From the NCBI GenBank assembly GCA_965217865.1, contig CBDCJO010000002.1, positions 1,056,001-1,120,000 of the forward strand: a DNA stretch of 64,000 bases. Reading direction: 5' to 3'. Both the position numbers and the translations under genes were made by a program. The notes under the pieces were generated by a model that was not told where the DNA came from, did no database searches, and saw only the letters and a list, made by a program, of their open reading frames with translations. Below are positions 1 to 32,323 of this stretch, piece by piece. The DNA comes from Candidatus Latescibacterota bacterium. Lineage in GTDB: Bacteria; Latescibacterota; UBA2968; SICM01. Each line of letters starts with the position of its first letter. The stretch's first letter is position 1.

Positions 1-235
1 GCTTCCGTCAGACTTTGACAATATAACCGTCCAGAGGTTACGCGCGTTTTTCAAATCATTATTCAAGGCAAGTGGAGCCAAATAAAGAAGGAAATTGAAC
101 CATGTGATCACGTAACGTTTATTGTCAGGGTTTATTTGCGGGCATTGAATACCAAACCTGTGCAGCATTCCAGCAAGGTCAGAATCGACAATCACAATTC
201 CGCCGAGCTTAACTGTGTCCTCAAGATCATGAACA

Positions 236-860
236 TTAGGTGGAGAAACTCGATTGGATTACGACCGCGTTGAACGTTCTCGCGATAGAAGCACCATCTA
301 ACCGGCAATTGTCTCTGGTTCCCCACTTTTGACTGTTGAAATAGTTTCGGGTCACTGAGGGCCATAGGATAACACCGCTCTTCTCAATTCCAGTGCCATT
401 GAGTTCCTCCAGATGACTCACTTCGTCACAGATCACGAAACCGAAATCATACCCCTCAATTTGGACTGGATCTTTCCTTTCTGGCATCGTGAATCCGTAT
501 CTTAACCAACCCTTCGACCAGACCTTTCTCCCCCCAGCGTAGAGAATTCCGCTGTCGGAACCGACCAGTACCATGGCATTCTGATATTCGCCATTTAGTC
601 GAAATGGTGTACCGATAACCGCCTTCAGCCCAAGCTCTTGGGCGTCCGCCGCGAGTGTTTCCAGCCCTTCCTGAACTTTAGAATACCAACCCTCTTGTTG
701 GAATAAACCATGTAGGTGGGAATCATACCCGACAACAGCCATCTCGGGGAATACTGCAAGGTGGGCCTGACTCTGCGCGGCAAGGGACAAGCAGTGCGAG
801 ATGGTAGAGACGTTCGATGAAACGTCAGCAGCCATTGGGATTTGGAAGGTGCAACGTGGC
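236..860 (-). pseudogene. Carbon-nitrogen hydrolase (nitrilase-family) fragment, C-terminal part of chimeric ORF 236..1264
   Basis: AVFPEMAVVGY (catalytic Glu motif), YQNAMVLV, GRK, GFVICDE (catalytic Cys motif); no start of its own. Confidence 0.75.
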
Positions 861-1304
861 ACCTTCAACGTAGCCCCTGAAGCTGCAAGTTCTGCAGTCG
901 CTTGGATGATCATCTTTACGGTGTTCGACTTCCCCGTGCGCGTCATTCCGAAAAGCGCCGTGCGCTTCCCCAGGTAGTCGAGGGCCGACACATACAGCGG
1001 CACAGAAGCGGCCTGAGCGTGGCGTCGGCTCGACGCGTAGCGAACTTCGCCGATCCGCAAATCTCCGGGCCCACCAGGAAGTACGTCCCCTTCACGGAAG
1101 TTGACGATGTACTCCAATACGCTGCCCGAGGGCTTATAGACTGAGTAGTTGTTCGGACCGTATAAATTGTTGACATCCGCCCCGAAGCGTGTCCCGCCTT
1201 GCGCATCCCGATAGAACGACCCGAGCACTCTGCACTCTAGCGTCCGCGACATCCTTGAAGACATCGATTGTCGCCAGTTTCCTAAGCCTCTCGTTGATCG
1301 ACAT
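861..1304 (-). pseudogene. HerA/DUF87-like P-loop ATPase fragment, internally deleted
   Basis: Walker A GKRTALFGMTRTGKSNTVK; probable start MSINERLRKLATIDVFKD lies in another frame near 1304. Confidence 0.7.
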
Positions 1305-1638
1305 CACTGCTACACTCCTTCCGCCCACTCGATTAGCCGGCTCCCATCGAATCGGGCCGAGCGCAGGCAGCTGTGTGAGCTGGTGTCCATCGCGGGATAA
1401 GATGAGGATTCGGTCCGTCTTCGTCGCTTGTCCACGGCCTTGCTTCCAGATTCGGCTGACCTTGTGCTGAGTCGGAAGTCGGTCGGCAACGATGCCATGA
1501 AGGTGCTAACCAAGTGGTCGCGCAACGTCCTCCCATACCTGCGTAGCGAGGTTTGTAGTGTTTCCTGTGCCGCGCTCGCAGACGTCGCCAATCATCAAGC
1601 ACAGATACCCGTCGAGGTCCCACTGGGTTTCGGATTCT

Positions 1639-1869
1639 CTAATCGTCTCTCTCGTCCTGAGTCGTCTTGCCCGATGGGCTTTTTTCAGGCTCATCTCCGC
1701 TGCTGTTTTGCACCCACTCGTCCACCTCCGAGAGCCTGAATCGCAGCAACCGTCCCACGCGGTGTGCGGGAAGGCCCTTCGAGTCGACCCAACGGTAGGC
1801 GGTATCTCTGGCTACCTGCAGGTGGGCAGCGACTTCACCGATACCGACCCAGCCTTCTTCAACTGCCAT
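1639..1869 (-). CDS. Excisionase-family (MerR-like HTH_17) DNA-binding protein
   Basis: WVGIGEVAAHLQVARDTAYRWV...LPAHRVGRLLRFRLSEVDEWV. Confidence 0.85.
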   Translation of the reverse strand: MAVEEGWVGIGEVAAHLQVARDTAYRWVDSKGLPAHRVGRLLRFRLSEVDEWVQNSSGDEPEKSPSGKTTQDERDD

Positions 1870-1929
1870 CTTTGACAGACCTCGCTTCAGGAAGAAACCA
1901 AAGAAACTCGACTACAATATATGAAACTC

Positions 1930-2340
1930 AGGCATTCCTCGTCAATGTATTTCCGGATTTTGGGGTACTGGAGCATCTGTCATCGGAAACCGTGATTAAC
2001 AAACCAGAAGATCAACGTCCTGGACTTTGGACTCAATTAACGATGCTCACTCGGAAACACAGACGCTTTTCTGATGCAAAATGGGCTTTGAGCGGCGAGA
2101 TCGTTTCTAGGATTGAGAGTATTACCGACAAGCTTGCTCCTCAAAATCCATTGGCCCGTCACCGCATGTTGTTCAGTGGGCATGGTCGTTATCTCTATGA
2201 GGAAATGGGAGATTTGCAAGAGCAGAAGCTTGAAGAGCAACGCCGGCAAGCAATAGAAAAAATTCTGGACGATGGCGCTATGGATGCGATCATACAGTTT
2301 GTCAAAGATGTTGAGCAACCTAGCTGTGTAGGACATTCGC
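1930..2340 (+). pseudogene. Internal fragment of an uncharacterised large protein (AT-richer part of chimeric ORF 1764..2717)
   Basis: Protein-like open frame (LWTQLTMLTRKHRRFSDAKWAL...) that switches abruptly to GC-rich DUF2924 sequence at about 2340. Confidence 0.45.
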
Positions 2341-2717
2341 TGACGGTTGGTGAACTGCGGGAGAAGTACATCAAGGTCTTCGGGGAGGAGACCCGCTCGT
2401 ACCACAAGGCGTTCCTGCGCAAGCGTATCGCCTGGCGTCTGCAGGCCCTGGCCGAGGGCGGCCTCTCGGAGCGGGCCCGGCGGCGCGCCGGGGAACTGGC
2501 CAACGATGCGGACCTGAGACTGCGCGCCCCGCGGGATCAGAGCAGGCCGGGCTCGGCGGCGGAGCAGGCGCGGACGACGGCCGGTCGTCTGTCGCCCTCG
2601 CGGGACCGGCGGCTGCCCCTGCCGGGGACGCTTCTGGTACGCACCTTCCAGGGCCGCGACCTGGTGGTGCAGGTGCTCGATGACGGCTTCGCGTTCGAGG
2701 GACGCCGCTACCGGTAG
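2341..2717 (+). pseudogene. DUF2924-domain protein fragment (family usually beside serine recombinases)
   Basis: TVGELREKY...FLRKRIAWRLQALAEGGLS...PGTLLVRTFQG...FAFEGRRYR; truncated at both ends. Confidence 0.8.
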
Positions 2718-3206
2718 ATCGATAAGGCCTCGGATTCCTGGGGTATCAAGGTGCTGCGCTACGAGCTGAGAAACATCACGCCTTCGCCCAATGTGGTGCA
2801 CACCCTTGAGAAACAAATGGAGGCCGAGCGAGAGAAGCGTGCCGAGATCACAAGAGCTTCGGCGGAGAAAGAGGCCACCATCAATGTCTCACAGGGAGAG
2901 CGCCAGGAAGACATCAACCTCTCCGAAGGCGAGAAACAGCGCCGCATTAACGTGGCCAAGGGCCGCGCCGAGGCGATCTCCACTCTGGCGGAAGCCACGG
3001 CAGAAGGCACAAAACTCATCGCCGCTGCCGTGCAGAAGGAGGGTGGTTCTTCGGCGCTGAAGATGCAGCTGGTGGAGGAATTCATTGAAACTTTCGGTGA
3101 GGTTATCACGAAGGCCAACACCTCCGTGGTTCCCTTGGAGCTCGCAAAAATCAAGGGCTTCTTCGACGGCCTTTCAGAAGTGGCCGACGGTGTGCCCGCA
3201 AAGTGA
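2718..3206 (+). pseudogene. SPFH/band 7 (QmcA/stomatin-like) protein, 5'-truncated
   Basis: WGIKVLRYELRNITP...EKQMEAEREKRA...SEGEKQRRIN; paralog of the next gene. Confidence 0.85.
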
Positions 3207-3225
3207 ACTCGTGAGGAGACCTATA

Positions 3226-4167
3226 ATGTCGCAGACTTCACCGTCAGAGATATTCAACCTCGTTGTCTGGGGAATTCTGTTCCTCGTACTGATCGTCAAG
3301 TTCTTCCGATCGATCCGTCTCGTGCCCACGCAGTCCGCGTATGTTGTGGAGCGGCTGGGTCGATATTCCAAGACTCTGCGTCCGGGATTCCATGCCCTTG
3401 TCCCCTTTTTCGACCGCGTGGCTTTCATCCAAGATCTCAAGGAGGAGACGGTTGACGTGCCGCCCCAGGAATGTTTCACCCGTGATGAGGTGCAGGTGGA
3501 AGTGGATGGTGTGATCTACATGTCCGTGACCGATCCGGTCAAGGCGAGCTACGGTGTTACGGACTACTCCTTCGCTGCGATGCAGCTTGCCCAAACCACA
3601 ACACGCTCGGTCATCGGAACCCTGGAACTGGACCGAACCTTCGAGGAGCGCGACCTGATTTCCTCCAAGGTAGTAGAAGTGCTGGAGAAGGCCGGAGAGC
3701 ACTGGGGAATCAGGGTGCACCGCTACGAAATCAAGAACCTGGCTCCCCCGCCCACGGTGAAGGAAGTCATGGAAAAACAGGTCACATCCGAGCGCAACCG
3801 CCGTGCTATCGTGGCCCAGTCGGAAGGAGACAAACAGAGTCGTATCAATACATCGGAAGGCAGGAAGCTCGAACTCATCAATCGATCCGAAGGCGAAATG
3901 CAGCGCACGATCAACGAGGCGCAGGGAAAGGCCCAAGAGATCCGCTCCATCGCCCATGCCACAGCCCAGTCGATTGAGCAGATAGCGTCAGCCATCAGCG
4001 TGCCCGGGGGTGAATCGTCGGTGCGACTGCAGCTTGCGGTGAAGTATCTCAAGCAGCTGAGGACTTTGGCCCAAGACAAGACCCAGGTGCTCCTGCCCGC
4101 GGATTTGACCAACCTGGAGGGACTGCTCAAGTCGATTGAGCTGTCGGGACCGGGCGAGAGATCATGA
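3226..4167 (+). CDS. SPFH/band 7 (QmcA/stomatin-like) membrane protein
   Basis: AGGAG RBS before ATG 3226; N-terminal TM; VVERLGRY, QTTTRSVIG, HRYEIKN. Confidence 0.92.
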   Translation: MSQTSPSEIFNLVVWGILFLVLIVKFFRSIRLVPTQSAYVVERLGRYSKTLRPGFHALVPFFDRVAFIQDLKEETVDVPPQECFTRDEVQVEVDGVIYMSVTDPVKASYGVTDYSFAAMQLAQTTTRSVIGTLELDRTFEERDLISSKVVEVLEKAGEHWGIRVHRYEIKNLAPPPTVKEVMEKQVTSERNRRAIVAQSEGDKQSRINTSEGRKLELINRSEGEMQRTINEAQGKAQEIRSIAHATAQSIEQIASAISVPGGESSVRLQLAVKYLKQLRTLAQDKTQVLLPADLTNLEGLLKSIELSGPGERS

Positions 4168-4199
4168 ATGGCGGGGGGACATCCGAGACGCGAAAACTC

Positions 4200-4305
4200 T
4201 AAGAGGACTGGAAGGCAGCGCTGAATCGGTTTGAGATTTTGTTCGAGGACAGGGTCCCATTAACTTAGGGGAGGAGGGCCGTTTACACAAAACTCTTGAC
4301 ACCTC
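4200..4305 (+). mobile_element. IS256-family 3' end remnant (transposase C-terminus plus right IR)
   Basis: RDWKAALNRFEILFEDRV* then TTACACAAAACTCTTGACACC. Confidence 0.75.
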
Positions 4306-4617: not shown

Positions 4618-4860
4618 ATATCCCATTCTCATCTATCCAATTCCGAATGGAGCTCTCGTCAAGAGGTGTGTATAGGACGTGTCTACCTTGTAGACTCGGA
4701 ACTCGTTCTTAAGCCGCTCCGCACACTCAAGGTTTGTTTCCTTGATCTGGCTAAGGACCTCGAGATTCATGATCGAGCCTTTAGCGGCCCTGAGACCGCT
4801 TCGGGCGCAGGTGGCGATTCGTTGCACCTCGTACATATGAGACGGACGATAAATTTTCAT

Positions 4861-5130
4861 GAAAGTATTTGAACTTGGATACCCCTTCCTTTGGAAGGGG
4901 AGGAAAAGTTTAGCTTGCCGAAGGCAAGCTAAAAGGCTGTCTTATCGTGTGCAGACCACTGAGACACAAATCGACTCAGGAGGCATACGATGGGACTCCG
5001 ACGGACCAGTCACGCAGTCTATGATAGCCAGTATCCTCTGGTATGGGCACCGAAGTACCGGAAATGGATTCTGCGAGGTGACCTTCGAGCGTATGTGGGC
5101 AAGCTGTTTCATCGGATCAAAAAAGAGGTG
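4861..5130 (+). mobile_element. tnpA: IS200/IS605 element left end with 5' part of tnpA (Y1 transposase), truncated
   Basis: Two hairpins then MGLRRTSHAVYDSQYPLVWAPKYRKWIL from 4990; left end nearly identical to 17223-17302. Confidence 0.85.
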
Positions 5131-5462
5131 GCCGGCACGGCGTCCCGCTTCTCGTCCGGGCGCCGCATCGCGGGCTCCGGTGCATGGGCAATCTACTTTG
5201 CGGGGGTTGTTCCTCAAATTTTGATTGAATCCCCCCCCTCCCCTGGGGGTGCAGGAATGTAGCTATTTGACCGGAAGCTGTCAACCAGAGAGGCTTCAGA
5301 TCCGAGCGATCAGAAGCGGCGCCAGCATCTACTATGGTGTGTCTCATTCCTGTAGTGACTATCACAACTGTGATCTTTTTGCTGAATACAAAAACACTGA
5401 AAAGACAGATAAGGTGATGGTCGGTCCGTTATTCCTTTCTTAATGACAAAAAACAACACGGC

Positions 5463-5553
5463 GCTTAACACACATTTGCCGGTCACTACGCTCCCTCCGC
5501 CCCAACCTTCCCTCGTTCCTCGGTCAGGTTCGGCAACTGTGAGAACGTTATGC
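5463..5553 (+). other. attC-like recombination site
   Basis: GCTTAAC (5463) ... GTTATGC (5547) with inner TTGCCG/CGGCAA inverted arms. Confidence 0.6.
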
Positions 5554-5631
5554 AAAATGCCGTTTTTGTGACTATTGGAATGTTATAGGGGAAAATATAG
5601 AACATGATATTCCTCATATGGGAATGTTTCG

Positions 5632-5979
5632 ATGCTAAATGCAGAATGTGTTAAAATTAAGCTTAAACCAGGCTCATTAGATCGGGTGAGAGAATGGGCA
5701 GATGAGATATCTCGGCGGTCGGATGAAGCGCTTGAAACCCTCCGAGATGAAGGTGTTATAGTGGAGTCTGTATTTCTTGACTGCACGAATGAGGGGGATT
5801 TCCTGATTTATTATATGAAAGCCGAAAGCATAGAAAGGGCTAAGGAAGTTGTGAAGAAATCGGTGCATTCGATTGATAATTATCATCAGAAATTCAAAAG
5901 GGATACTTGGGAATCCAGAAATAAGCTTGAGCTTCTAGTTGATCTGGATCGAATTTTAGAAGCCAGAAAAGACGGATGA
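5632..5979 (+). CDS. DUF6176-like small protein carried in an integron-type gene cassette
   Basis: CVKIKLKPGSLDRVREWA...LETLRDEGVIVESVFL; bracketed by GTTATGC and GCATAAC core sites. Confidence 0.75.
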   Translation: MLNAECVKIKLKPGSLDRVREWADEISRRSDEALETLRDEGVIVESVFLDCTNEGDFLIYYMKAESIERAKEVVKKSVHSIDNYHQKFKRDTWESRNKLELLVDLDRILEARKDG

Positions 5980-6146
5980 ATCTTCCTTTGATATCGAGAT
6001 TGATTTCAAGAACGAAAAAATCCATAAATTATGGGTTAAATCCGCCCCTTTCTTCTTTTTCCGATCACAAAAACGGCACAATGCATAACACCGAGTACCC
6101 GCCTCCGCTTTCGTTGAAAATACATTAGATGCTCTCCTGGTGAGGT

Positions 6147-6182
6147 ATTTCCGCGATCTAACGATCGCGGCCTCATTGAAGC
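6147..6182 (+). CRISPR. Single orphan CRISPR repeat (type I-G/I-U-like); not an array
   Basis: ATTTCCGCGATCTAACGATCGCGGCCTCATTGAAGC: 36 nt, CCGCGATC/GATCGCGG stem, ATTGAAGC 3' handle; no second copy seen. Confidence 0.65.
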
Positions 6183-6264: not shown

Positions 6265-6418
6265 CCCCTGGAAGGACTTCCCCCCCCATTCGACCTGAAG
6301 CGACACCCTGAAGGAACTCCCCGCATTAGACAACATCCTGAAGGAACTCCCTGAACTCCCCCCATTCGTGTGACTGTCGCACTCCACTGTTGCAACTCCA
6401 CTGTTGCAACTCCACTGT
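6265..6418 (+). repeat. Direct-repeat cluster: CCTG(G)AAGGA(A)CT(T)CCC x3 and a 14-bp tandem ACTCCACTGTTGCA x2.7
   Basis: Read directly; 14-mer units start at 6381, 6395 and 6409. Confidence 0.8.
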
Positions 6419-6884
6419 CCCCCCCACGGTCGCTTTTCTGAAGGTTCCGCATCCAAATTTGCCCGGATTCCTGAATAAAGTCGCACACGGAGAGAATCCG
6501 ATGCCCTGTGGCCGATTATTGTATCCCCTCTGTGCCGACCAATGCCGGTTTGCTGGCTGGGAAGTATCCGAAGCGCCCGGCAATCTCCGCCACGTATGTT
6601 TGCCATCTGTTTGGCGTCCTTAAATACCAGCCATGGAGATACGTCCCAAAATCCTGATTCTGGTCACACGAAACTGGTCCTTGAATATTCAGAAAGCGGA
6701 CAGCGTTCCACGCCTCTTACCTCCACAGGAAACCTGCAAGCCCAGAACGAGAATGGTGACAGTCCAAAGCCCCGTCTCCTGCCTCCACCGGCTCATAGAC
6801 TACCTCCTTGTCGCGCTCTACAAGAGCGTTTAATTCTCTCGGCAGAATAGATCATGTGACACGAGCACAGTGGACCCGCTGCCG

Positions 6885-7932
6885 CTACCATGTGAAGGTG
6901 AAAAATACCCCCGTTGGTTGCTGCCGCGCGGGCCTGCTGAAGTCCGGGATCTTGTACCGGTCGGGCACGGTGGACCAGCCGTTGTAGATGTTGCCGCCGA
7001 CATAGAAGCGCCGCGGCCGTTCCGGCTCCGGGATCGGCCTGCCCGTCGCGAAGAGTGTGTAGGAACGCTGCGGCGGCTCCGGGTCGATTCGTTCCGCGTG
7101 AGGCACGTACTCCCTGAGACCGTCGCCATCGACGTCCGCATGAATCCAGTCGAGGTGGAGCAGGCGATGGTAGCTGCCGTCGGCGATCATGCCGCGCAGC
7201 TCGGCGTTGAACCGCGAGATGATCGACTCGGCGTCCGGAAACGAGCGACGGACGGCGAGGTGAAGCGAGCGTGTGAGCAGCGGCGTCGAGCCGAACGCGA
7301 GCCGCGTTCGAGCTTCTTCTCCGTGGTTGCGGATGAGGTACTGGATGACCAGGTCGTCCATCAGCGTGTAGTCCACCTCACCGTTGAGGAGTCTTGTGAC
7401 GCTGTTCTCTTCGCTGTTCGAGCCAACGAAGATCGGCCCGTCCGTCGTCTCGACCGCCTCGCCATACGCGTACCCGGCTTTTGACCAGGGCGATCCGCTT
7501 GCCGGCGAGGTCGGCCAGCGCGGTCGCGGATACATCGCTGCCCTGCCGCCCGACGAGGATCAACCGGTTCTCGAGATACGGCTGCGAGTAAATCAGCGCG
7601 CGTTCGCGCTCCGTGTCCCTCCAGAGCGCCGCGCTTCCGTCGAACTCCCCGCTCAGCAGTGCGGGCGTCAGCCTGGCTTCGTCCACGATGACCGTTTCGG
7701 CGACGATCCCCACTCGTTCAAGAGCCGTGTCGACCAGATCGAGAGCGAACCGCGCCTGCCCCGGCGCGTTGGTGAACGGCGACCACGCCGTCGACACGAG
7801 CTGCAGCTGCCGACCTTGCGCGGCTGCCATGATCGGGTCCGGATCCTGTCCGAACGCCCAAGGCGCGGTTAGCGTCAAGGCCAGCACGGAAATGGCAAGT
7901 GTCGTAAGTATGCTTGTTGGCCGCCGTTTCAT
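6885..7932 (-). pseudogene. Periplasmic solute-binding protein (family 3-like), frameshifted near 7480
   Basis: Signal peptide MKRRPTSILTTLAISVLAL...; WSPF, YSQPYLENRLILV, LAGKRIALV in one frame continuing as GYAYGEAV...FNAELRGMIADGSY in another. Confidence 0.75.
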
Positions 7933-8287
7933 TTCAACCTCCGATCTGCGTCATTGAGGCGTGTGCCGACTCGTGGATGAGCACGAGCCGGTATCGAACG
8001 TTTGTTAGGTTCTGATCAGAACGAGAACGTCCTACCGACCTGCACTTGCCTTGGCGTGGCACTGATGGTCAAGTCCCTCATCACCGGAACGTCCGACCAG
8101 ATGGTTGCGAGCAGCACGCCGCCCACGGCAAGTCCAATCCCAAGCGCACCGAAGACGTTGACCTGCTCACAATGGAGGGACATCAAGGAAGTACACAGTC
8201 TCCTCATCTTCCCCGCAGGGTCGTCCGACCTGAGTTGCGAGCAACGCGGTGCCTCCAGCCATCAGCGCGACACCCGCCCATGTGATA

Positions 8288-9071
8288 TGACCCGGGAAAA
8301 GTGGACAGTGGTTTAAGCCGCTTTTTGCAGCGATAGGCGTTCAAAAAGGGCCGGGGACACATAGTCCAGGTAAGCGTGCAGCCGCTGATTGTTGTAAAAC
8401 ATTTCGATGTACTCGAAGAGTTCGCGCTCTGCATGATCGAGGTCGATCAAGTCGACGTGATACAGCCATTCGGTCTTCAAGGTTTTGAAGAATGACTCGG
8501 AGACGGCATTGTCCCGGCAATCGGCCTTCTTGCTCATGCTTTGAACAAACTGATGCGCGTCGACGGCCTTTCGGAAGCCATCGCAGCAATACTGAATACC
8601 TCGATCGGAATGAATCATCAGATTCGGCTGCGGTCTGCGTTGCCATACTGCGCGTGACAGGGCCGTGAGTACCGTTTCGTGCGCCAGCGAGGTGCTGACG
8701 CACCAGCCAACCACGCGACGTGAAAACAGGTCAATGAATACAACCAGATACAGCCATCCCGATCGACTGGACAAATACGTGATATCGCTGACCCACACTT
8801 CGTTGGGACGACCCGCGTCAAAGGCCCGGTTCAGCAAGTTCGGGGATGCCTTCAGGTCGTGCTTCGTATCCGTGGCCACCACGAACTTCCGACGTACCTT
8901 CGACCGGAGGCCCTGACGACGCATCGAAAAGGCCACGCGGTTGCGCCTATACGGCTTTCCTTGTGCCGCCAGCGCACGGCTGATCTTCAGGCTCCCATAC
9001 CGGCCACGGCTGGCCTCGCAGGCCGCTTTTACCAGGACATCCAGAAGAAGTCGTTCCTGCTCGCGGGGCAA
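8288..9071 (-). mobile_element. IS3-family orfB (DDE transposase), 5'-truncated, with right IR
   Basis: WVSDITY, HSDRGIQY, DNAVSESFFKTLKTE, YNNQRLH; IR TGACCCGGGAAAAGTGGACA at 8288. Confidence 0.9.
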
Positions 9072-9499
9072 CCCTTCGGGGTCTTGTCGTTTCTGCCGTA
9101 TTCACAAACGCTTAGGCCATCTTCCCCCCTCTCTGCAAATTCTCTGTTTCGAAGCGCTCCACCCGGGATTGCAAGCGCAACCGTGGGGGCTGCATCCGTT
9201 GAGCAGAGATATCTCCTCCGGATTCTCCGATTCTCTGTTTTTTCAGTCGGCCTTGTTTAACAGCCCGGTTGCATCCGGACGGTTTGGACCATAAGTAGTG
9301 ACATTATAGTTTGGCTCGGCAGCAAGGACGTCAGAACGGCTGCGGAAGAAAGTTCGTGGATGCCGCGTAGAACGGAACGGTCGTCAGGAGCCGTTGGAGC
9401 CCGCGCGACATCGCAAGAGGGCGATGGTCAAATCCTGATCATCCTGCAAAAATGGATGGAGTGAACCGGAGATCCTGTGAGTTTCACGCAACGGCTACC

Positions 9500-9740
9500 A
9501 TTTCAGCTGGTGGTGCGATCTGTCGTTCCTCATAGAGCAGCTCAATCTGGAGGCGTTCAGTAGACGTGATGTTGATGTTCTGCCATCCGGCTGCTACGCG
9601 AATGAGAACGGCGTGAACGAATATCAGGCAGCTCTTCTCCGTGAAGAAGCGAGGGAGCGTTTGGGTTCTGCGTCGCTCCTCGGCGAAGCTGTGCTCAATG
9701 AGATTGGTGGTGCGGACATATTTCCTGAGTCGTCAGGCAA
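9500..9740 (-). mobile_element. IS256-family transposase C-terminal fragment
   Basis: Minus-strand frame RKYVRTTNLIEHSFAEERRRTQTLPRFFTEESCL. Confidence 0.7.
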
Positions 9741-9834
9741 CTGAAGGCCGCCAGGAGAGCATCCGGATCCTCGGATGGGATGGTACTCGCCTTACCTCGG
9801 CTTGGAGTCTAGGCCCCGATGGCCCCCTACCCTA

Positions 9835-9906: not shown

Positions 9907-10904
9907 CTGTTTTTTTTAAAACCTTCCCGTTTGAGTTCTACGAGCAAATTTTTCGTCTGAAGAAGCAGCCTGGACCCGATGACGCGAAACGTACATCCGT
10001 AGATCGGACACTATACAAATAAATATTGTCTATGAGCGCATAGATTTCCGAACCGTGACGTCCGTGCTTGGGAATTATATCTCTTCATCTGGAGATATGG
10101 CGCGGATACTTCTTCTGTCTTGCGGATCAAGCAGGAGTATCCACAGGTCTATCCGCTTGCGCAGATCCTTGTGGACACGCTTCAACTGGTTGAGATAGGC
10201 ATGTGTTTCTGGAAGAGCAAGACCAAGCCGGACTGACAGTTTTGGAGTGCTCTCTCTGAAGTACGATACAACGCTTGCCAGTGCCCGATCACGGCCCGGG
10301 CAATCATCTCGACTCTATTTCAAGGCATCTCCACGTGCCTGCCAGGGCACGGGAGAACACGCCTGATCCTTTGAAAACGAATACTCATGTGCGAACGCGT
10401 GTCATATTCCAAGGGGGGGGACAAAAGTGAATTGCGCTCCCATACCGGGAACCGTGGTTTCCGTTGCAAGCAAAAATTCTATGGAAAATTAAGCATGTCT
10501 TAATATTGAATCTTGACGAGCATCTCGAAAAACGTGACGTATAAATCGCACAAGTGTATTATATACAAATATGTAAAAGAGAAAGGCAGGATGATCAATA
10601 AATTCCTGGAAAGCGAAAAGAGGCCGGGAAAAATACCGGTAATTCATCCTTGAAAACATGAGGATCCTTTCTCCTGACTTGAACTTCGAGGTCGGAGGCA
10701 ACCCGGGTCATGGTTTTTCCGTAGGGTATCTTTCCTCTTGCCAAGATTCAACGGCAATTGTACATTTGATCCACTATGTATCCCGCGAGGTGGATTTTTG
10801 TCAATGGCCCTGATTATGATATATTAAGATTTGGTTTATCCCGCAGAGAGGAAAGGGACATTGAGGCGGCTTCGCTCGGAACACTTTCAACGGAGGTGAC
10901 TGGC

Positions 10905-19233: not shown

Positions 19234-19379
19234 TCTTGATGAACCAGATAACCCCGGAGGAACAGGCCGCAAACCATAAAGATTTTACAAGATCCTCTTC
19301 CTACTTCTTGAAATCCGCTCAATTAAAATTGCCAGGTATCAGAATGCTCACCCGATTGCCGTGTTAAGAATAAGTTCCC

Positions 19380-21445: not shown

Positions 21446-21609
21446 GCCAGTTCCATAATTACTCATAACGCATCACTGCTGTCCAAGATAAATCAGATTC
21501 GCGTAAGCGACGGGTGCGAAATCCTTACTCGCCTCGTACATACGATAACGGATGCCATCGGTAACGACCACGTCACACGACACGCCGAGGGCGGAGAACA
21601 AGCCGGTTG

Positions 21610-22241: not shown

Positions 22242-23489
22242 TCACCTTGGATCGTAGATCGCCCCCAGGAAGAGGATGGTCCCACTCAGCCGTTCCCGGA
22301 TTGCGAGCAGGAACGGCCGGTCCACCTTAATGCCGCTCGGCCCTGCCGATGACGGACCCATGCGCACCGATGTAGCGGCCGCCGCTACCGTTCCTTCCTC
22401 GTCCACCTTCAGGAACGTTTTGTGCTTGACCTGAGAGATGTGTGTCTCCGGGACAGAAGTGAGCCTGGAGAAATCCGCCGCTTTGGGATCGAACGCCGCC
22501 CCCATGCCCATCTCAACAAGTGGGGTGTTCAGCAAGGCGTCGTACTCCTGCTCAAACGCCGGCAGCTGCACGGGCAGTTCCCGAAACTCGATCCCATTCG
22601 TCCACTCGTCCCACTGCGCTAGATCGATGCTGTTCACCAGGTCCGCCAGACCGCCTCCAGGGCGCGGCTGCAAGATCACCATCGTGAACGCCTCCGCCCC
22701 GTACGGCAGCTCGGCAATCTGCAATCCCTTTGCGAACCCGGTTGCTCCACGCCCATTCGGATTGAACATCGCCGGCACGTACACAGGATCGGTGCTTCCT
22801 TCCAGGAAGAACGGTCGGGAGTCCGTCTTTGCTGGATCGAACTGGACCGTCCAATCTCCCTCGAAGTAAACAGCGTTCAGGAGAAAGAGGTTGGTGTACC
22901 GGTCAATCCTCTGGACGATCGATTCGATGCGACCGCGGGTCTGCTCTTTCACCCAACCGTTGATGGTCTCCCTGGCGCCGGGATCGGCGAAGTCGAGCGC
23001 CTGAGCTTTGGCATCGAAGTACGTGCGGATGGCGTCGAAAAAGCTCGTCTCGAACGTAACTCCCTGTCGTATCCACACCGAACTGGCGACTGCGATCTGC
23101 ACGCTTGGATCCAGCGTAAATAGAAGGTCGTGCAACCCTCGGTAGCCCTCGTTGATCTCGCCCATCGCCATGCCGGATAGCTGGAGCCCCGAGCGCATCG
23201 CCTCAAACGTCTCCCCCGCAGCGCCGTTCAGGGTCATTCCAAGCGCCATCGACACGCTCAGCGGAGACACGAACACATTCCTACCCGGTTCGGTTTCTTC
23301 TGCCACCTCGCGCAGCAGTTCAAAAGCGAAGACGTTGTTGGCATGGATCGCCGCGTCCTCGCTTGCCGTCAGCGGCCGGGGCAACTTTGTGAGGGGTTCC
23401 TGCGGTCCAACGGGGTTGCTCGTGCAGGCGACAAAACCAAGCATCGTCGCCCCAACAAGCGCCGTCAAGGTCCAGTTGAGTGCAGACAT
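22242..23489 (-). CDS. Serpin (serine protease inhibitor), predicted lipoprotein
   Basis: NVFVSPLSV, INGWVKEQTRGRI, LNAVYFEGDW, hinge VDEEGTVAAAAT, VDRPFL; lipobox FVAC. Confidence 0.95.
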   Translation of the reverse strand: MSALNWTLTALVGATMLGFVACTSNPVGPQEPLTKLPRPLTASEDAAIHANNVFAFELLREVAEETEPGRNVFVSPLSVSMALGMTLNGAAGETFEAMRSGLQLSGMAMGEINEGYRGLHDLLFTLDPSVQIAVASSVWIRQGVTFETSFFDAIRTYFDAKAQALDFADPGARETINGWVKEQTRGRIESIVQRIDRYTNLFLLNAVYFEGDWTVQFDPAKTDSRPFFLEGSTDPVYVPAMFNPNGRGATGFAKGLQIAELPYGAEAFTMVILQPRPGGGLADLVNSIDLAQWDEWTNGIEFRELPVQLPAFEQEYDALLNTPLVEMGMGAAFDPKAADFSRLTSVPETHISQVKHKTFLKVDEEGTVAAAATSVRMGPSSAGPSGIKVDRPFLLAIRERLSGTILFLGAIYDPR

Positions 23490-23909
23490 TAGCGGTAATG
23501 GATCAAGTGGATGTCGGCGCGGTGTGTTGCAGTTGTGCGTCTGGTTGGCCCTACGGTGGCGGAGATTCAACCTCTTCGGACCGTCCGACACCCAGGCCGC
23601 AACACTGCAACGGGTGCATTCTCTTCAATGTATATCCAGTATATCCGACGCCCGGGGATCTCCCAAGTTTCGTTTTTTCAGGGGTGGCATGTTGATGATG
23701 CCTGCCGCATCCTTTCACCAGGACCTTTCAGGCACACCTTTCTCCACACTATCTGTATCTATATCAACATGTTACGCTGTGTTGGTGGAAGGGTGAAGGA
23801 TTTTCAGAAAATCTCCCCGCATAGAGCGATGAAAAAAACCTTGGAGTATCGCGGACGTCCCACGGGCCACAAAAAATCACGGCCCCACACGCCCCACATC
23901 GTTGGCCAA

Positions 23910-24029: not shown

Positions 24030-24268
24030 TTCCAGCTTTAGCTTCGTGCTTGCCATCTTACATTGAAGCTATTGGAAAAACTGGTGGAGGCATAATCTGT
24101 AATTATAAATTCGATTGGGAAGTTGCACTTGACCAAGTCTTGAAAAATCGGCAGATTTTAAAGGATTGTTCCATTAATGCAAAGCGGGGGATGCTATCAT
24201 ATTCGACTGAATTAATAACACAAAAGTACATACAACTATTCCAAAGCCTAAGTGGGACCGGGTTTTAA
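24030..24268 (+). pseudogene. Probable GT4 glycosyltransferase C-terminal fragment
   Basis: GGIICN...WEVALDQVL...YSTELITQKYIQLF pattern; AT-rich. Confidence 0.4.
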
Positions 24269-24559
24269 ATCTAAAATAGATGTGGGGTATAGTAACTTGG
24301 AAGTGCCAAAAGCCGAGCGCACAAAACTAGCCTCCCCAAAATCTAATCATATACTGCCGAAAAGTTAGCTCCGCAACACAAGGATACAGGCTCTTGCCAT
24401 CGGACCACCCCAAACCTGCTTTGTAGGTTTGGGGCAGCATTAGAATCCCACAACCAGCGCTTCTGCTACAGGCGCACGAAAACCCATTATTATCTTCTTT
24501 ATTCTCTCAACACAATCATCAAGGTAAAAGGATACACTTTTTTGTTGAAAGGTTTGAGA

Positions 24560-25294
24560 ATGTCTAAGAGGAAGACAAAAAGGGCCTTAGTAATAATCCC
24601 AACTTATAATGAACGAGAAAACGTTGAACGGATAGTCCAAGCAATTTTGCCAGTGGACCTGCGCATTAGTATCCTAATTGTGGATGACAATTCCCCTGAT
24701 GGAACGGGCGAGATTGCTGAGAACCTAGCCAAGTTGTACGACAAAGTTTACGTATTACACCGGGAAAAAAAAGAAGGGATCGGAAGAGCTTATATTGCAG
24801 GGTTCAAATGGGCAATTGAAAGGAAATTCAATTACATTTTTGAGATGGATGCTGACTTTTCTCATCGACCCCAATATTTGGAAGACCATTTGAGGGAAAT
24901 AGAAAACCACGACTTGGTGCTGGGTTCAAGGTACATAACGGGGGTAAATGTTATTAACTGGCCAATAACGAGGCTTTTACTGTCCTACTATGCCAATGTA
25001 TATGCTCGGTTGGTAACTGGAATGCCGGTGAGAGATGCCACAGGTGGATTTAAGTGCTTTCGCCGAGAGGCCTTGGTGGCTATTGATCTTGAAAGTCTTC
25101 ATGCATCTGGCTATGCATTTCAGATTGAAGTTACAATGCGAATATGGAAGAAGGGATTCAGGATAAAAGAAATTCCTATCATATTTTATGATCGCACAGC
25201 AGGTGATTCAAAGATGTCAAAAAGAATCATGGGTGAAGCCATTTGGACAGTATGGTTGTTGCGCATCAAATCGATCTTTGGATTGTTGACTTAA
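24560..25294 (+). CDS. Polyprenol monophosphomannose synthase (DPM1-like GT2)
   Basis: IIPTYNEREN, VDDNSPDGTG, EMDADFSH, LGSRY, DATGGFKCFRR. Confidence 0.93.
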   Translation: MSKRKTKRALVIIPTYNERENVERIVQAILPVDLRISILIVDDNSPDGTGEIAENLAKLYDKVYVLHREKKEGIGRAYIAGFKWAIERKFNYIFEMDADFSHRPQYLEDHLREIENHDLVLGSRYITGVNVINWPITRLLLSYYANVYARLVTGMPVRDATGGFKCFRREALVAIDLESLHASGYAFQIEVTMRIWKKGFRIKEIPIIFYDRTAGDSKMSKRIMGEAIWTVWLLRIKSIFGLLT

Positions 25295-25319
25295 CAATGA
25301 CATGCTCAACCGGCCTCTA

Positions 25320-25407
25320 AAAATTGGTATGTCAATACAGAGGAATCCCTCGACATCAGTTCCATTTATCCCTGAAGGAAATAGAGTTCAGATTTAACCA
25401 CGAAGAC
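25320..25407 (+). mobile_element. IS1595-family C-terminal fragment (second copy)
   Basis: QYRGIPRHQFHLSLKEIEFRFNHED, similar to 18020-18100. Confidence 0.8.
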
Positions 25408-26045
25408 CAGCGCCCGGCTTGGCACATGTTTCTTGTGCAACTTGGCGCACTTGCGCTGTGGGCGGCGAAGCGCAACGACCTGTCAGTGGATGCGGCGGAC
25501 TGGGCAGTTGACCTGCGGAGATTGACTCGGGATCATACCGACGACGCGCCATGGCGGCTCACTATAGACGAACGGGAAAAACCAGCCTTCCTGCAGCCGC
25601 CGGACCCGGGAGGCCTTAAATGGTCCGCCGTGGCGACGCCCGATGCGCTCGACATGCTGATCACTTCGAAGAATCACGACCTGAAACAATCTGTGGCGAA
25701 GCGGGCGACACCGGAGGATTGGGTGTGCGCGCTGGTGTCGCTGCAAACGTCCGAGGGCTATGGCGGCGCAGGAAACCAGGGTGTTGCGCGCATGAACGGC
25801 GGCTCATCCAGCCGCCCGATGTTGGGGCTTACCCCCGGTCGGGACAAGGACATTTCGGTTGATCCTTCCGCGTGGTGGGCGCGGGACGTGCGACGGCTGG
25901 TTGAGGCGCGCGCGACAGGACAGAGGAGCGGGATCGGTGCCGTGGCCGGACCGGCACTTTTGTGGTGTCTCGACTGGCCGGAAGGCCGGCAACTCGACCT
26001 GCGCGACCTGGACCCGTGGTTCATTGAGGTCTGCCGGCGAGCCGT
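25408..26045 (+). pseudogene. Type I-E CRISPR Cas8e (Cse1/CasA) internal fragment
   Basis: QRPAWHMFLVQLGALAL, KPAFLQPP, TPDALDMLITSKNHDLK, ALVSLQT.EGYGGAGN.GVARMNGG, DPWFIEVCRR. Confidence 0.8.
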
Positions 26046-26310
26046 TGGGGGCGGTTGATTGATTTCCAACTGTATGACGTCCCATAACGTTCTCGAGTCC
26101 GGTTACTATTGTACCAAGTACTTCAACAGGTTTACTTGGCTTCACACCTAGTCTATCAACGAATCTGTAGCTTGTTTGCTCACTCAAGATCTGTCGGTTT
26201 AATGTTTCAGTCTGCCGGAAAACGCCGCATTAGGAGACGATCCGGTCCAGGATGGAGTGTCGAGAAAATGTCCTTGATAGTATATGACGGTTAGACTATA
26301 TTGTTAAATC

Positions 26311-26540
26311 ATGAACTGGGAAGTCGGATTTGATCCGGCCTTCGACTCGGAATTCGATGCCCTGCCCACCCGCAGTGCAGGATGAGCTACTTGCTCAAGC
26401 GAAGCTTCTTGAGACATTCGGACCGTCTCTGGGCCGTCCACGGGTGGACACTCTGGACGGGTCGCGCCACGCCAACATGAAAGAGCTTCGCTTTAACGCC
26501 GCCGACGGCGTGTGGCGGGTCGCCTTTTTCCTTTGACCCC
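26311..26540 (+). pseudogene. RelE/ParE (HigB-like, DUF891) toxin, frameshifted and truncated
   Basis: MNWEVGFDPAFDSEFDAL then AVQDELLA...GPSLGRPRVDTLDGSRHANMKELRF. Confidence 0.85.
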
Positions 26541-26661
26541 AAGGGGAGCCATCCTGCTTGTGACCGGCTGAAAAGTGACGATCGAGAAGATGAAATAAGA
26601 GCGGATTTAGATGCTCTGGGTCCGGTGTAAGTTGCTATAAGGAAGCAAGGAGGCCTCTCAA

Positions 26662-27315: not shown

Positions 27316-27589
27316 TTCCATCCAGGGGTTGTCTCGGGCTCCGTTTTCGGCATAGGAGACCCAACCCCCTTCTCCCTGAATAGGATGCGGCGTAACCAGG
27401 TGTAGCTTTGTGTAGACAGAATCCCCTGTCGGCCACGGCCCGAGCCACCCACCCATTTGCTCTCAATATCCAGGAGGCCGTCAGATGGGCCTTCCGGGCG
27501 CCACGGGCATAGATCAGTTCTGTGAAGTCGGTCGTAAAGGCCTAAACACTCAATGAATTGGCGGCCTTTCACCAAATTCGCCTGGGATC

Positions 27590-27850
27590 CCGCAACAGGG
27601 TTTGCCAGGAGAGCTTGCTCTCACGCTGGCCGTCCTCGATAGCGATGACTTCCTTGCAGCCATCAGCCGTTGCACCGACCAGCACGAGCACACAGGGCCG
27701 ATTCTTATCCAGGCGCACGTTGAAATAGATCCCGTCCGCCCACACATACACGTCGTGTTTTCCGGTCAGGTCGCGCTGCTTCCAGCTCTTATACTCATCT
27801 TCCCAGATTTGCTTCAGCCTGGTGACATTAGTCGGTGATAAACCCGAGTT
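27590..27850 (-). mobile_element. IS256-family transposase internal fragment
   Basis: YVWADGIYFNVRL...VLVLVGATADGCKEVIAIEDGQRES. Confidence 0.85.
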
Positions 27851-28108
27851 CTTGAGAAATGTGGGTTTCAAAAAAAGGGTACTGGGCGGTCTCCCCACGA
27901 AAAATGGGTATTGGAATTAGACGGAAAGCTCGTTGCTCGAACTTCAGTACCCCATGGGAGTAAGAAGCTAAAAAAACCGACGTTTTTTCAAATATTAAAT
28001 AGCCAGATTTACTTAAATTTGGAGGAATACGAAAAATTATATTCCTGCGAAGAAAACGCCGGTTACTACCACCAGCTATTAAATCAAAAGGATATTTTGG
28101 AAGATTAA
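27851..28108 (+). pseudogene. HicA-like toxin, 5'-truncated
   Basis: LEKCGFQKKGTGRSPHEKW...RTSVPHGSKKL. Confidence 0.55.
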
Positions 28109-28839: not shown

Positions 28840-29091
28840 GGCTGGTTTACCGGACCTTCTCGCTCCGCGCTCCGCAACGGCTCACTTGGCGGCAGGTGTA
28901 CCACCAGTTCGGAGCACACCCGGCCAAGGCGAAGGACAAGTTGGTTGTGAATGATTTTCGCAAGGATTGTTTGCGCGATTTGAAGAAGATCAAGCTGGCT
29001 TGGCCGGAGTTGAACTACACGACGGCTCCGGGCGTCCTGATCCTCTTGCCCTCGACGCCCGCCATCGCGCCGCTCAATCAAGGCCAGCTAG
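28840..29091 (+). pseudogene. Plasmid RepA C-terminal fragment, cut by IS1182
   Basis: YHQFGAHP...DFRKDCLRDLKKIKLAWPELNY...GVLILLPS. Confidence 0.65.
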
Positions 29092-30617
29092 CAGCCTGTT
29101 GAAAAAGTGCGTTTATGCCAAGATGACTGTTGTCTTTCCTTGTGGTTTGGTCCTATGATATATCAGGTTCAAACTGAGAAGGGAGGACGAGCAAATGGCA
29201 ATGGGAAAACGAGGACGACAGAGACAGGAAAACCTGTTCATCGCATCGAACACTTTGGTGAAATCTCCGGGTCATCCGTTCTACGAGAAGCTGAATCAGG
29301 TATTGGGGGCGAACGGCTTCGACGAGTTCGTCGAGGGGCTTTGCCAGCGGTATTACGCTCCTCATATGGGTCGCAAGGGCATTCCGCCCGGGGTTTATTT
29401 TCGGATGCTTTTGATTGGGTATTTCGAGGGACTTGATTCGGAACGTGGGATCGAATGGCGTGTATCTGACTCGCTGACGTTGCGCCGGTTTTTGGGGTAT
29501 GCCCTTGACGAACAGACCCCGGATCATTCCAGCCTGTCTCGCATCCGGCATCGGCTTCCCTTGGAAGTTCACGAAGCGGTTTTCAAGTGGATCCTGAGGG
29601 TCTTGTGCAAAGCGGGTCTGGTGAAGGGGAAGACGTTGGGCGTGGATGCTACGACACTGGAGGCCAACGCCGCGATGCGCAGCATTGTACGCCGTGACAC
29701 GGGTGAAGGCTACCAGGCATTCCTTGAGAATCTGGCCAAGGCCTCGGGCATTGAAACGCCTACCCGCGAGGACTTGTCCAAGATCGATAAGAAGCGACCG
29801 AAGAAGGGATCGAACCAGGACTGGGAGCACCCGCACGACCCGGATGCCAAGATCGCTAAGATGAAGGACGGTCGCACGCACATGGCGCACAAGGTGGAGC
29901 ACGCGGTGGATCTGGACACCAATGCCATTGTGGCAGTGGCGTTGTCGGGAGCAGATGAAGGAGATACCGAGTCGTTGCCCTGGACGCTGCTCGAGGCGCA
30001 GCTCAATCTCAAGCAGGTCGCGAAGGACGAAAAAGCTGCTAAGCGTTTGCACAGACAGCGTATACGGGAGGTGGTTGCGGACAAAGGATATCATAGCAAC
30101 GATGTATTGACCAGTCTGAAGCAAGGCGGCATCCGGAGTTACATTTCAGAACCGGATCGGGGACGCCGCAAGTGGAACGGCCGACGAGATGAGCAGGCCG
30201 CGGTATATGCGAATCGACGCCGGATCAAGGGAGATCGCGGCAAGGCCTTGCGCCGAAGTCGTGCAGAACGGGTGGAAAGAACCATCGCTCACACATATGA
30301 TACCGGTGGCATGCGCAGGTTGCACTTGAGAGACCGCGGCAATATCCTCAAGCGTTTGCTGATCCACATCGGGGGCTGCAACCTGGCTCTGCTCATGCGC
30401 AAAGTGATGGGCGTAGGTACTCCGAAGGCCCTCCAGGACCTGGCCAAGGCCTTGCAGCGTCTACTGCTCGTCCTACAATCACGTTTGCTGCCCTCGGTCA
30501 CCTTTTTAACCTCTTATCAGCGTCTCCTGCTCAATCTCCTTACCTTGATTTATCTGACCCGCACTCCAGGCGTCTTTTCCGTTTATGTGCGTTGAAAGGT
30601 AGTTCTTCAACGGGCTG
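29092..30617 (+). mobile_element. Complete IS1182-family element; transposase at 29195..30595
   Basis: GRKGIPPGVYFRML, TPDHSSLSRIR, GVDATTLEANAA, VADKGY; IRs CAGCCTGTTGAA / TTCAACGGGCTG; flanks CTAG / ATAG. Confidence 0.92.
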
Positions 30618-30772
30618 ATAGGGAGCTAATTCTCCCCTTTCCCACCTCTCAGCGGCCAGCCACCGGCTTTCCGCAGCGCGTTGGATTCTAGGTATCCCCC
30701 CACACCCCTGAATCGCCTGAATCCGTAAATCGTTTATTTCCACAGGCTTCTGTGATTTCTTTGGGTTTTCCA

Positions 30773-30823
30773 CGAACATTCACCCCTACTCAATTTCGAT
30801 CTATTTCGAACATTCACCCCTAC
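30773..30823. repeat. Exact 17-bp direct repeat x2 (period 34)
   Basis: CGAACATTCACCCCTAC at 30773-30789 and 30807-30823. Confidence 0.9.
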
Positions 30824-31625
30824 CATACAAGTAAAGTACATTGGCAGTCAAATAGTCCAAAGCCATTTCTGGACCGTTCCCTGGCAGCATGGGAACCGAT
30901 AATAGCGGAAGCGAAGTTGTGAGCAAGGCAAATCTATGCCCAAGCGTTGGGTGGATTTCTTGCGACGCGCACCGGTAAAATATGTTCATACCGTCACCGA
31001 TCTTCTTTAATATATCTGCAAAGAGGACTCGAGAACCGGGGTTATTTTCTTGGAATACCGGTTGCGCCCAAACATAATCTCTAATTCCCGACCCAAACTT
31101 CTCCTTATACGTTGACTTCATATGGGAGATTACCGATTCAGCATAGTGAGGTTCCTTACCTGATCGTCCACATAATTCGTTATAGGATTCCTTTTGGCGA
31201 ATCCAAGAACGCAACAGCGTGCTGCTGATGTAGTCGCGGAACACTTGCGGATGTTCACTGCAAAATCGTGCAAGGAATTCACAGACCACGTGAGCTTCAT
31301 ATAGCGTGCGCCATAGTTGCCAGCCTGCCCAGTAAGATTTTTCTATAAGAAGTCCTATAGCGTTCGCCTGTTGACTCGCGTTCGTGTACAGGTGCATGAA
31401 TACGTAGGACTTAGCCGCTTGGAGATCGTACGTCTCATTGAGACATTGATGAAGAATATCTTCTTCGGCAAACCAACTTGGGCGACACACGAGGTCCTTC
31501 TCAAGGTCTGCACTAAAGTAAGCGGTTTCTCTGATTAGCTCTTCGAGTATTTGGATTCTATGGGGCTTCCAATCAGGTTTCTGGCCACTACGCTCCATGT
31601 GCCTCTCTAGCCAATAGTTCTTCAT
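30801..31625 (-). CDS. DUF5677-like helical protein, probably 3'-truncated
   Basis: AIGLLIEKSY..GWQLWRTLYE, YVWA, FYRCASQEIH. Confidence 0.6.
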   Translation of the reverse strand: MKNYWLERHMERSGQKPDWKPHRIQILEELIRETAYFSADLEKDLVCRPSWFAEEDILHQCLNETYDLQAAKSYVFMHLYTNASQQANAIGLLIEKSYWAGWQLWRTLYEAHVVCEFLARFCSEHPQVFRDYISSTLLRSWIRQKESYNELCGRSGKEPHYAESVISHMKSTYKEKFGSGIRDYVWAQPVFQENNPGSRVLFADILKKIGDGMNIFYRCASQEIHPTLGHRFALLTTSLPLLSVPMLPGNGPEMALDYLTANVLYLYGRGECSK

Positions 31626-31774
31626 TTTGAAACCTCGTTCCCCTCGAGGATGGCCAGCCACGGGCGAGTCCTGGCCTCACTAAAGCGACTGATAGAGTCA
31701 GGGGGGACGCCGGTGCCCTTAGAGGGGATCATTTCATAACTTTCGGGTTTAATATCAGTAATACCTCTGAAAAC

Positions 31775-32233
31775 ACAGGATTTTTGAGGAGCTTCGATTC
31801 CGGGTTAACGTGGGATTCGGTCGCCCCTTCGCTCAAAAATCTGATAATTACCGGATTCGATGCCTCCATGGACGGTCAGACCATCTACGCGAATGCACGG
31901 GATTCCTTTGTGATACAAATATCCGCCGACGGGGGGGCCAACTGGACCACGACGGAAATCAACCAGGCCAACGGTCCTGTCGCGGTTTCTCCTTCGGATT
32001 CCGACCTGGTCCTTTACGGGGGCTCGGCCAGGCTTTACAGATCTCACGACGGTCTTAGAACGACTCGTCAGGTATTGGAAGCTGGCGGGACGATCACCGA
32101 TATCGTATTCGCCCCGTCCGATCCCACCAACGTCTATACCGTTGCCGATGGATACTTCTTCTATAAAAGCACAGATTCCGGGGCCACCTTTTCCCTTGTC
32201 AGGAACATACGCTCAGATGTATTGAACAATTGA
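31775..32233 (+). pseudogene. BNR/Asp-box beta-propeller protein, C-terminal fragment
   Basis: RSFDSGLTW, SADGGANW, KSTDSGATF; no credible start. Confidence 0.75.
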
Positions 32234-32323
32234 TCCTGTGAAATACGAGTCTCTTACGGGACCTCTAATGATGTCAGAAATAGACGATGTCATTCTGAGC
32301 GCCAGCGAAGAATCTCGGTTTTA

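Follow-up and report, generated by a model that had tools for sequence, protein, structure and literature searches.

In Prochlorococcus, the tycheposons target tRNA 3' ends and integrate in tandem, leaving partial tRNAs and degenerate remnants and accreting cargo, and some of them carry a large serine recombinase and primases (bioRxiv 10.1101/2020.12.28.424599). In Sinorhizobium meliloti, non-homologous end joining (NHEJ) by Ku-LigD captures heterologous DNA at one engineered break, with single bases added at blunt ends (PMC6379672). The window analysed is a stretch of 64,000 nucleotides (C2:1056001-1120000) of a Candidatus Latescibacterota genome, G000, a 6.43-Mb assembly in two contigs (C1 and C2) that is 96% complete with 9.3% contamination. 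The first 32 kb of the window are a mosaic of fragments of insertion sequences (IS), integrative elements, defence genes and ordinary genes, which an earlier note, made from the sequence alone, had read as a possible locus where foreign DNA is captured and compacted by end joining.

Our reading, held with somewhat more belief than doubt, is that this mosaic belongs to a 66-kb island at a tRNA-Leu gene, among about 12 regions that swap pieces of 0.2-7 kb through near-blunt joints, likely made genome-wide by Ku-LigD in a bacterium with no detectable AddAB/RecBCD. Decayed islands are common; what stands out here is how much of the genome they take up (27%), the copying of kilobase pieces without the help of IS, the near-blunt joints, and the presence of Ku-LigD without detectable AddAB/RecBCD.

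The islands and their joints

The island begins at tRNA-Leu(CAA) (C2:1022147-1022230), 34 kb upstream of the window, and not at base 1 of the window as the earlier note had assumed, so that positions 1..32320 are its distal half. Repeat-rich, GC-variable DNA sets in at the 3' end of this tRNA gene (C2:1022230), tyrosine integrase fragments are found inside the island at C2:1041531 and C2:1043617, and pieces of a DUF2924 element lie in the window. No second copy of the last 16 nucleotides (nt) of tRNA-Leu(CAA) was found as a displaced tRNA fragment at the distal end; such a fragment is present for the tRNA-Asn island described below.

Whole-genome self-BLAST showed the same texture in about 12 regions, adding up to 1.72 Mb, whose outlines were drawn by hand and by eye from repeat density. 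The 32 kb are therefore no special locus, the other regions being equally shredded: pieces number 8.6 per 10 kb here, against 6.8, 7.2, 7.5, 3.6 and 4.2 in five other islands. Of positions 1-32300, 64% matched another place in the genome by BLAST, usually in another island, against 11% of the remaining window. Identity and length showed no significant trend with distance from the anchor in any of six islands, and transposase fragments showed no strand bias in four islands (4:4, 17:17, 12:8 and 2:4). Among the islands, the larger ones begin at the 3' end of a tRNA or tmRNA gene. The IS load is very high, with 81 rve matches in G000 and 0-21 in nine relatives.

The mosaic is real: the same joints turn up in both copies of duplicated blocks, and contigs from three studies run across joints. 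The block at 14705-21593 has a copy at C2:3764207-3772627 that keeps all its internal joints and has later received a 1.5-kb IS. Contigs from runs of the three studies, one of these runs possibly being the source sample of the assembly, bridge the joints at about 5353, 9775, 10291, 13915 and 19340 with 0-8 differences, independent read or contig support covering positions 1-20000. Runs labelled as sponge metagenome, which contain only 5-8% of the sequence words, were left out of this comparison. Depth over the duplicated block was about twofold in three of four runs (23.6, 42.7 and ~40 versus ~12, 22 and 20). Amplification chimeras or misassembly of a mixed population, the mundane alternatives named in the earlier note, could appeal to the contamination estimate, to the end of C1 overlapping both the start of C2 and a third place, and to frameshifts in some core genes, but composite blocks with the same joints at two loci, the five joints spanned independently and the doubled depth leave this explanation largely refuted, with scarcely any probability. 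Over 10006-13340 there is hardly any depth in run X9, and of 179-853 run X8 has only a diverged copy, although missing cover proves nothing on strain variation. A frameshift close to a run of T breaks up the comEC gene (C1:424406-426885), where relatives have frames of 790-860 amino acids; this is either a pseudogene or an assembly error.

Pieces of the mosaic are cut internally and copied between islands. Sister copies of the IS3 and IS630 fragments end at many different internal points. Low-copy duplicated pairs (at least 200 bp, at least 93% identity) numbered 215, with a median of 703 bp; 153 were within the 12 regions (125 between regions and 28 within one), 40 linked a region to outside DNA and 22 were outside, with 94 in the same and 121 in opposite orientation. 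In a set of 51 recent duplications of at least 1 kb at 99% identity or more, 90 of 102 ends were not at the termini of 12 catalogued IS families, a figure that slightly overstates IS independence since a few low-copy elements, and the overlap of the two contigs, are counted among the duplications. The earlier observation that most breaks are not at IS ends thus holds, the breaks lying inside elements, and supports the view that ordinary IS nesting fails to explain the joints.

A list of junctions built by k-mers contained 332 rows, which were reduced to 80 joints after dropping small indels, duplicates and one IS end; these are the joints for which both parents' continuations are known, and 72 are in islands. 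Overlaps were of 0 nt in 17 joints, 1 nt in 18, 2 nt in 10, 3 nt in 6, 4 nt in 4, 5 nt in 4 and 7-12 nt in 7. The microhomology measurement suggested in the earlier note therefore agrees with joining at little homology, as 45 of the 66 joints without extra bases share 0-2 nt (59 share 0-5 nt). Extra bases were present in 14 of the 80, four of them with one base, and no flanking base bias or motif was detected at the breaks of these joints. Seven of nine internal deletions of multi-copy elements resolved cleanly with overlaps of 0-3 nt; three were outside the islands, and the joining style is therefore genome-wide. Such near-blunt, motif-free joints with some added bases fit NHEJ but are not exclusive to it.

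Two other origins of the joints were discarded. A chromothripsis-like shatter-and-rejoin event is not supported, since neighbouring pieces came from one donor region in 2 of 34 cases versus 3.0 after shuffling (p 0.83). Integron-driven shuffling was rejected because no IntI was found above the curated cut-off, the best locus being split, and joints other than that of the single cassette listed below have no attC motif.

Integrative elements and contents of the mosaic

A non-coding repeat at 9062-9282, with 45 matches and two family entries wholly inside mosaic regions, is the end of an element that carries DUF2924 and a large serine recombinase. Its fixed left edge was considered as a rolling-circle end and ruled out, being merely the truncation of this copy. 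One copy of the element lies directly after the 3' end of tRNA-Asn, forming a junction like a left attachment site (attL), and 29 end-to-end element junctions share the short core of this copy. An attR-like site is found beside partial tRNA-Asn ends at C2:574652-574922, about 610 kb from the attL-like junction. In two islands, 12 of 17 and 6 of 6 of the junctions with this core point the same way as the anchor (p 0.07 and p 0.03), and a sister element is in tandem at the tmRNA, with a 9-nt core. The window itself contains only the truncated element end and not the tandem junctions. Related element ends were found in 4 of the 40 relatives surveyed, directly after tRNA genes in three of them. 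Because of the attL-like and attR-like sites, the 29 end-to-end junctions and the tmRNA tandem, repeated integration is the probable source of the islands, which would have grown by tandem integration of elements targeting tRNA and tmRNA genes together with IS invasion.

A single tRNA-Asn island of about 610 kb runs from C1:620053 to C2:574922 across the contig overlap and includes 17 junctions with the att core. A nearly intact DUF2924-serine-recombinase element, in tandem at the tmRNA (C2:1831053-1915000) and with a primase-like gene and defence-type cargo, is a good reference for the family. The cumulative GC skew of the contigs turns at about 3.59 and 6.10 Mb of the 6.42 Mb joined, and the resulting arms of 2.5 and 3.9 Mb are consistent with island growth or rearrangement.

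The features of the window are as follows.

236..1264, reverse strand: chimeric open reading frame (ORF) made of a HerA/DUF87 stub (profile 8-49) and a carbon-nitrogen hydrolase piece; 376-853 within it has a 92.9% copy at C2:105489-105966
1634..1967, reverse strand: excisionase-type HTH_17 fragment (profile match 1642-1911), about 9 related copies
2341..2715, forward strand: internal DUF2924 fragment of the tRNA-Asn-targeting serine-recombinase element; 0-nt overlap at its joint with the SPFH piece (2715/2716)
2716..4268, forward strand: SPFH/Band_7 gene pair, first gene 5'-truncated, 97.4% copy at C2:4426101
4856..5117, forward strand: left part of an IS200/IS605 element broken within tnpA, joint with 1-nt overlap
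5117..5353, forward strand: non-coding piece, far end of the integrative element family, about 32 island copies
5463..6089, forward strand: attC-type hairpin and DUF6176 cassette, second attC truncated
6145..6182, forward strand: single CRISPR repeat (Rfam E 0.023, below gathering), related to a 12-repeat array at C2:606354
6300..8385, unstranded: 2086-bp composite block, 100% identical at C2:2523587, ends away from IS termini
6850..7932: SBP_bac_3 gene, frameshifted, inside the 2086-bp block
8283..9065, reverse strand: IS3-family fragment, sister copies ending at more than 10 different internal points; 1-nt overlap at its joint with the next piece
9062..9282, forward strand: truncated att-proximal end of the DUF2924-serine-recombinase element, the 45 matches being genome-wide
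9422..9775, reverse strand: IS256 fragment
10776..13538, forward strand: intact gene for a 920-amino-acid TonB-dependent receptor, single copy, cargo
13915..14705, reverse strand: IS630-type fragment, internally cut, joint with 1-nt overlap at 14705
14705..21593, unstranded: 6.9-kb composite block, 100%/99.8% copy at C2:3764207-3772627, with an ABC ATPase, a NEW3 protein, an IS200 derivative, IS1595, IS3-like and IS30-like scraps and an ABC permease
21612..22019, forward strand: IS3-family fragment
22242..23490, reverse strand: intact serpin gene, cargo
24161..25933, forward strand: GT2 gene, IS1595 scrap and the beginning of Cas8e; two other islands hold 99.8% copies of 24161-25410 and 24442-25933
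25410..26058, forward strand: internal fragment of type I-E Cas8e/CasA (profile 38-181 of 504)
26315..26568, forward strand: Gp49/RelE-like toxin fragment
27583..28000, unstranded: IS256 fragment adjoining a HicA fragment
29088..30621, forward strand: full-length DUF772+DDE insertion sequence, of which the genome has about 90 full copies
32321..32639, unstranded: short interspersed repeat (about 80 copies), distal island edge
42729..45949, reverse strand: intact ligD-ku, then a TPR/DUF433 gene, outside the island

Fragments abut directly in 1-32300 and GC varies between 0.40 and 0.65 in 500-bp windows, in agreement with the abrupt shifts first described. Profile scans also bore out the count of at least seven IS families, with Y1_Tnp/IS200, IS3, IS256, DDE_3/IS630, IS1595, HTH_38 (presumably IS30-like) and DUF772+DDE (the full element of which we take to be IS1182-like) transposases, and they matched the proposed excisionase, DUF2924, HerA, Cas8e, RelE-like and HicA pieces. 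The CRISPR repeat and the attC cassette were recovered as listed; an Rfam scan of the window gave no matches at gathering and only that one CRISPR repeat at E 0.1. The integrase at 23830-24030 is weak, with a tblastn E of 9e-5 only, as is the group II intron, which has no Rfam match but resembles DNA interrupting a gene at C2:1.175 Mb, and Uma2 and RepA had no profile match. The bias to selfish and defence DNA stood in part: the scraps are there, presumably because integrative elements carry such genes, but about 13 kb (~40%, hand-summed) of the 32 kb is ordinary non-selfish cargo, much of it intact, comprising the SPFH pair, the TonB receptor, ABC genes, the serpin, GT2, a sensor and DUF5677.

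Genes with 77-90% DNA identity to the SBP gene occur in Latescibacterota, Acidobacteriota and a gammaproteobacterium, and no flanking DNA is shared. Since cargo is shared this widely and the genome holds no copy of 39% of 1-32300, outside capture also contributes, as in any island.

Compared with the contigs of four runs, SBP_bac_3 has 4 additional bases here, which cause its frameshift. An IS200/IS605 derivative at 17219-17452 has an internal deletion, keeps both ends and has about 14 further copies. Two GH32 genes (32642-34209 and 37947-39334) are each split into N- and C-terminal ORFs, by frameshifts or assembly errors. An orphan type I-E-like CRISPR array (C2:140200-141030) has two spacers that match the bacterium's own chromosome perfectly over 32 nt, at C2:3321102 and at C2:5507872; the second site overlaps an ORF that lies outside the 12 regions. 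In G000, Cas8e and most copies of cas1 are fragments, and self-targeting may have favoured loss of the system.

Repair genes and rival explanations

The earlier note had placed an NHEJ operon near the mosaic, and ligD-ku is indeed intact there. The order ligD-ku is conserved in all six relatives examined, four of which also have the TPR gene, and its surroundings are gene-dense in all six (long-ORF cover 0.77-0.98); ku is present in 10 of the 40 relatives. Its closeness to the mosaic is incidental, because distant islands are as shredded and the neighbourhoods in the six relatives are not mosaic, and a link between the mosaic and the nearby operon was rejected on these grounds. In G000, recA and mutS are intact and recF is present. 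Neither profiles nor tblastn with proteins of relatives detected AddA, AddB or RecB, the only matches being UvrD-type helicases, which makes NHEJ a live candidate: if no such nuclease degrades their ends, linear pieces would last, and Ku-LigD would be the likely agent that joins them.

The genes ku and addA tend to be complementary among these genomes, in which kin are not independent: an AddA match is absent in 6 of 11 ku-positive genomes, and all 16 genomes of family f3 are without ku, most having an AddA-sized match. The addAB genes of the relative G007 (C1:1284000-1293000) appear split over several frames.

The mechanism that we favour would begin with integrative elements entering at tRNA and tmRNA 3' ends, where repeated integration may build islands, and would continue with the heavy IS load documented above. 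Elements and cargo are then cut at arbitrary internal points and low-copy blocks copied between islands in either orientation, as observed in the duplicated pairs. Breaks from transposition and integration might be repaired by end-joining, deleting DNA and ligating stray pieces, with products that would survive only in islands, where loss is presumably neutral. The result would be debris without archive function.

Several results weigh against this reading. Overlaps exceed a purely blunt expectation, with 17, 18, 10, 6, 4 and 4 joints observed for 0-5 nt and 36.6, 18.7, 7.1, 2.4, 0.8 and 0.2 expected, and such a mild microhomology excess is also produced by other illegitimate routes. Adjacent pieces are not from one donor region (2 of 34), non-IS DNA cleanly inserted at one break with rejoined flanks was not evident among the cases listed, and tRNA links were established for some but not all of the 12 regions. 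The reading does not explain how copied pieces are released, nor why donors are mostly islands, a bias that is partly circular because boundaries were drawn by eye. The assembly in which no addAB was found is 96% complete, and five other ku-positive genomes likewise have no AddA match. Repeat breakpoints in 20 tRNA-downstream windows, a comparison that included no ku-negative genome of family f3, numbered 27-64 over six draws in G000, 0 in G027, G013 and G035, and 48, within the G000 range, in G011, so that Ku without AddA is not sufficient. In 20-kb windows centred on transposases, the median was 6 breakpoints in G029, low despite its ku, 3.5 in G007, which has no ku and where most 'junctions' are edges of sampled windows, and 36.5 in G000, a biased figure since 15 of its 20 windows were picked inside islands. 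Ku, or Ku without AddA, was accordingly ruled out as a sufficient cause by ku-positive, AddA-less relatives with little shredding.

A substantial minority of our belief goes to the same island graveyard with joints made without Ku-LigD, by adjacent deletions, replication template switching or RecA exchange at repeats common to islands, followed by trimming; transposases or recombinases would initiate deletions whose IS end was later lost, and RecA exchange would have one illegitimate end. The very high IS load, the intact RecA, the mild microhomology excess and the ku-positive relatives that are little shredded all agree with it, the two reciprocal products expected from exchange between a pair of 9-nt att-like cores are both present, and the many repeats common to islands would explain the island-to-island donor bias. 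It has more difficulty with the many ends that have no IS terminus or att core, which are the majority, and with the 2086-bp block, whose other copy has novel joints at both ends yet is 100% identical. Verified spontaneous rearrangements in Salmonella had at least 8 bp of junction homology, though long ones were selected (PMC3411829), and deletions in Sodalis were mainly at repeats (PMC4948707). As the rearrangements in both favour longer repeats, NHEJ fits the joints here better than slippage does, but routes assisted by transposase or RecA could also have made them.

The earlier note had gone further and compared the locus loosely to a piRNA (PIWI-interacting RNA) cluster. Taken as a rival explanation, this means a dedicated place beside the NHEJ operon where foreign selfish DNA would be taken in and compacted to serve as a defensive archive. 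The many selfish and defence scraps, ku-ligD 10 kb away and some cargo common to several phyla are what such an archive would lead one to expect, and joints with little homology and cargo shared across phyla do survive from that proposal. A dedicated capture locus by ku-ligD does not, and the archive is very improbable: about 12 equivalent regions lie up to megabases from ku, there is neither polarity nor strand bias, 64% of the DNA is self-derived or self-shared, 40% is ordinary cargo, the ku loci of relatives are not mosaic, and the content is largely common to strains from different studies.

A broader version of the favoured reading, which we consider conceivable but rather doubtful, is that AddAB/RecBCD was lost and Ku-LigD kept, so that end-joining became the main double-strand break repair and heavy transposition turned a quarter of the chromosome into mutually copying islands. 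If so, the genome would document, in nature and over megabases, how NHEJ can shuffle a bacterial chromosome. The role of NHEJ in shaping genomes has so far been shown mainly at engineered breaks, and if NHEJ is the joiner here, hundreds of natural junctions become available to test how it shapes wild bacterial genomes; if it is not, the islands are an extreme mobile-element graveyard like that of Orientia, and a warning that a mosaic of this kind in a near-complete metagenome assembly need not be an artefact.

Comparison with known systems

Integron cassette arrays and CALINs (clusters of attC sites lacking integron-integrases) are arrays of attC-bounded cassettes. The mosaic resembles them in one attC-flanked cassette, but it has no IntI above cut-off and no array. 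Scraps of selfish DNA are stored in piRNA clusters and CRISPR arrays, and the mosaic differs from both in having no polarity, strand bias, repeat-spacer structure or single locus. A literature search of partial coverage found no description of this pattern in the lineage.

As in Sinorhizobium NHEJ, joints are homology-independent, with end deletions, either orientation and occasional single-base additions; unlike there, NHEJ here is deduced only from junction statistics and gene content (PMC6379672). The likeness to the RAGE of Orientia tsutsugamushi lies in the amplification of one element into mostly truncated copies between intact core stretches, although RAGE is conjugative, with an F-type type IV secretion system, and the islands here consist of mixed elements and cargo (PMC10732058). 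The two families searched for in G000, VirB4/TrbE (PF03135) and Terminase_6N (PF03237), gave no match.

The tycheposons share tRNA 3'-end targeting, tandem co-oriented att junctions, partial tRNAs and accreted cargo with the islands of G000. Unlike tycheposon islands, those of G000 are up to about 600 kb long, together make up 27% of the genome, are rich in IS, show no gradient from the tRNA and swap low-copy blocks among themselves via near-blunt joints. The islands match the tycheposon model of accretion, pushed towards the state of the Orientia RAGE.

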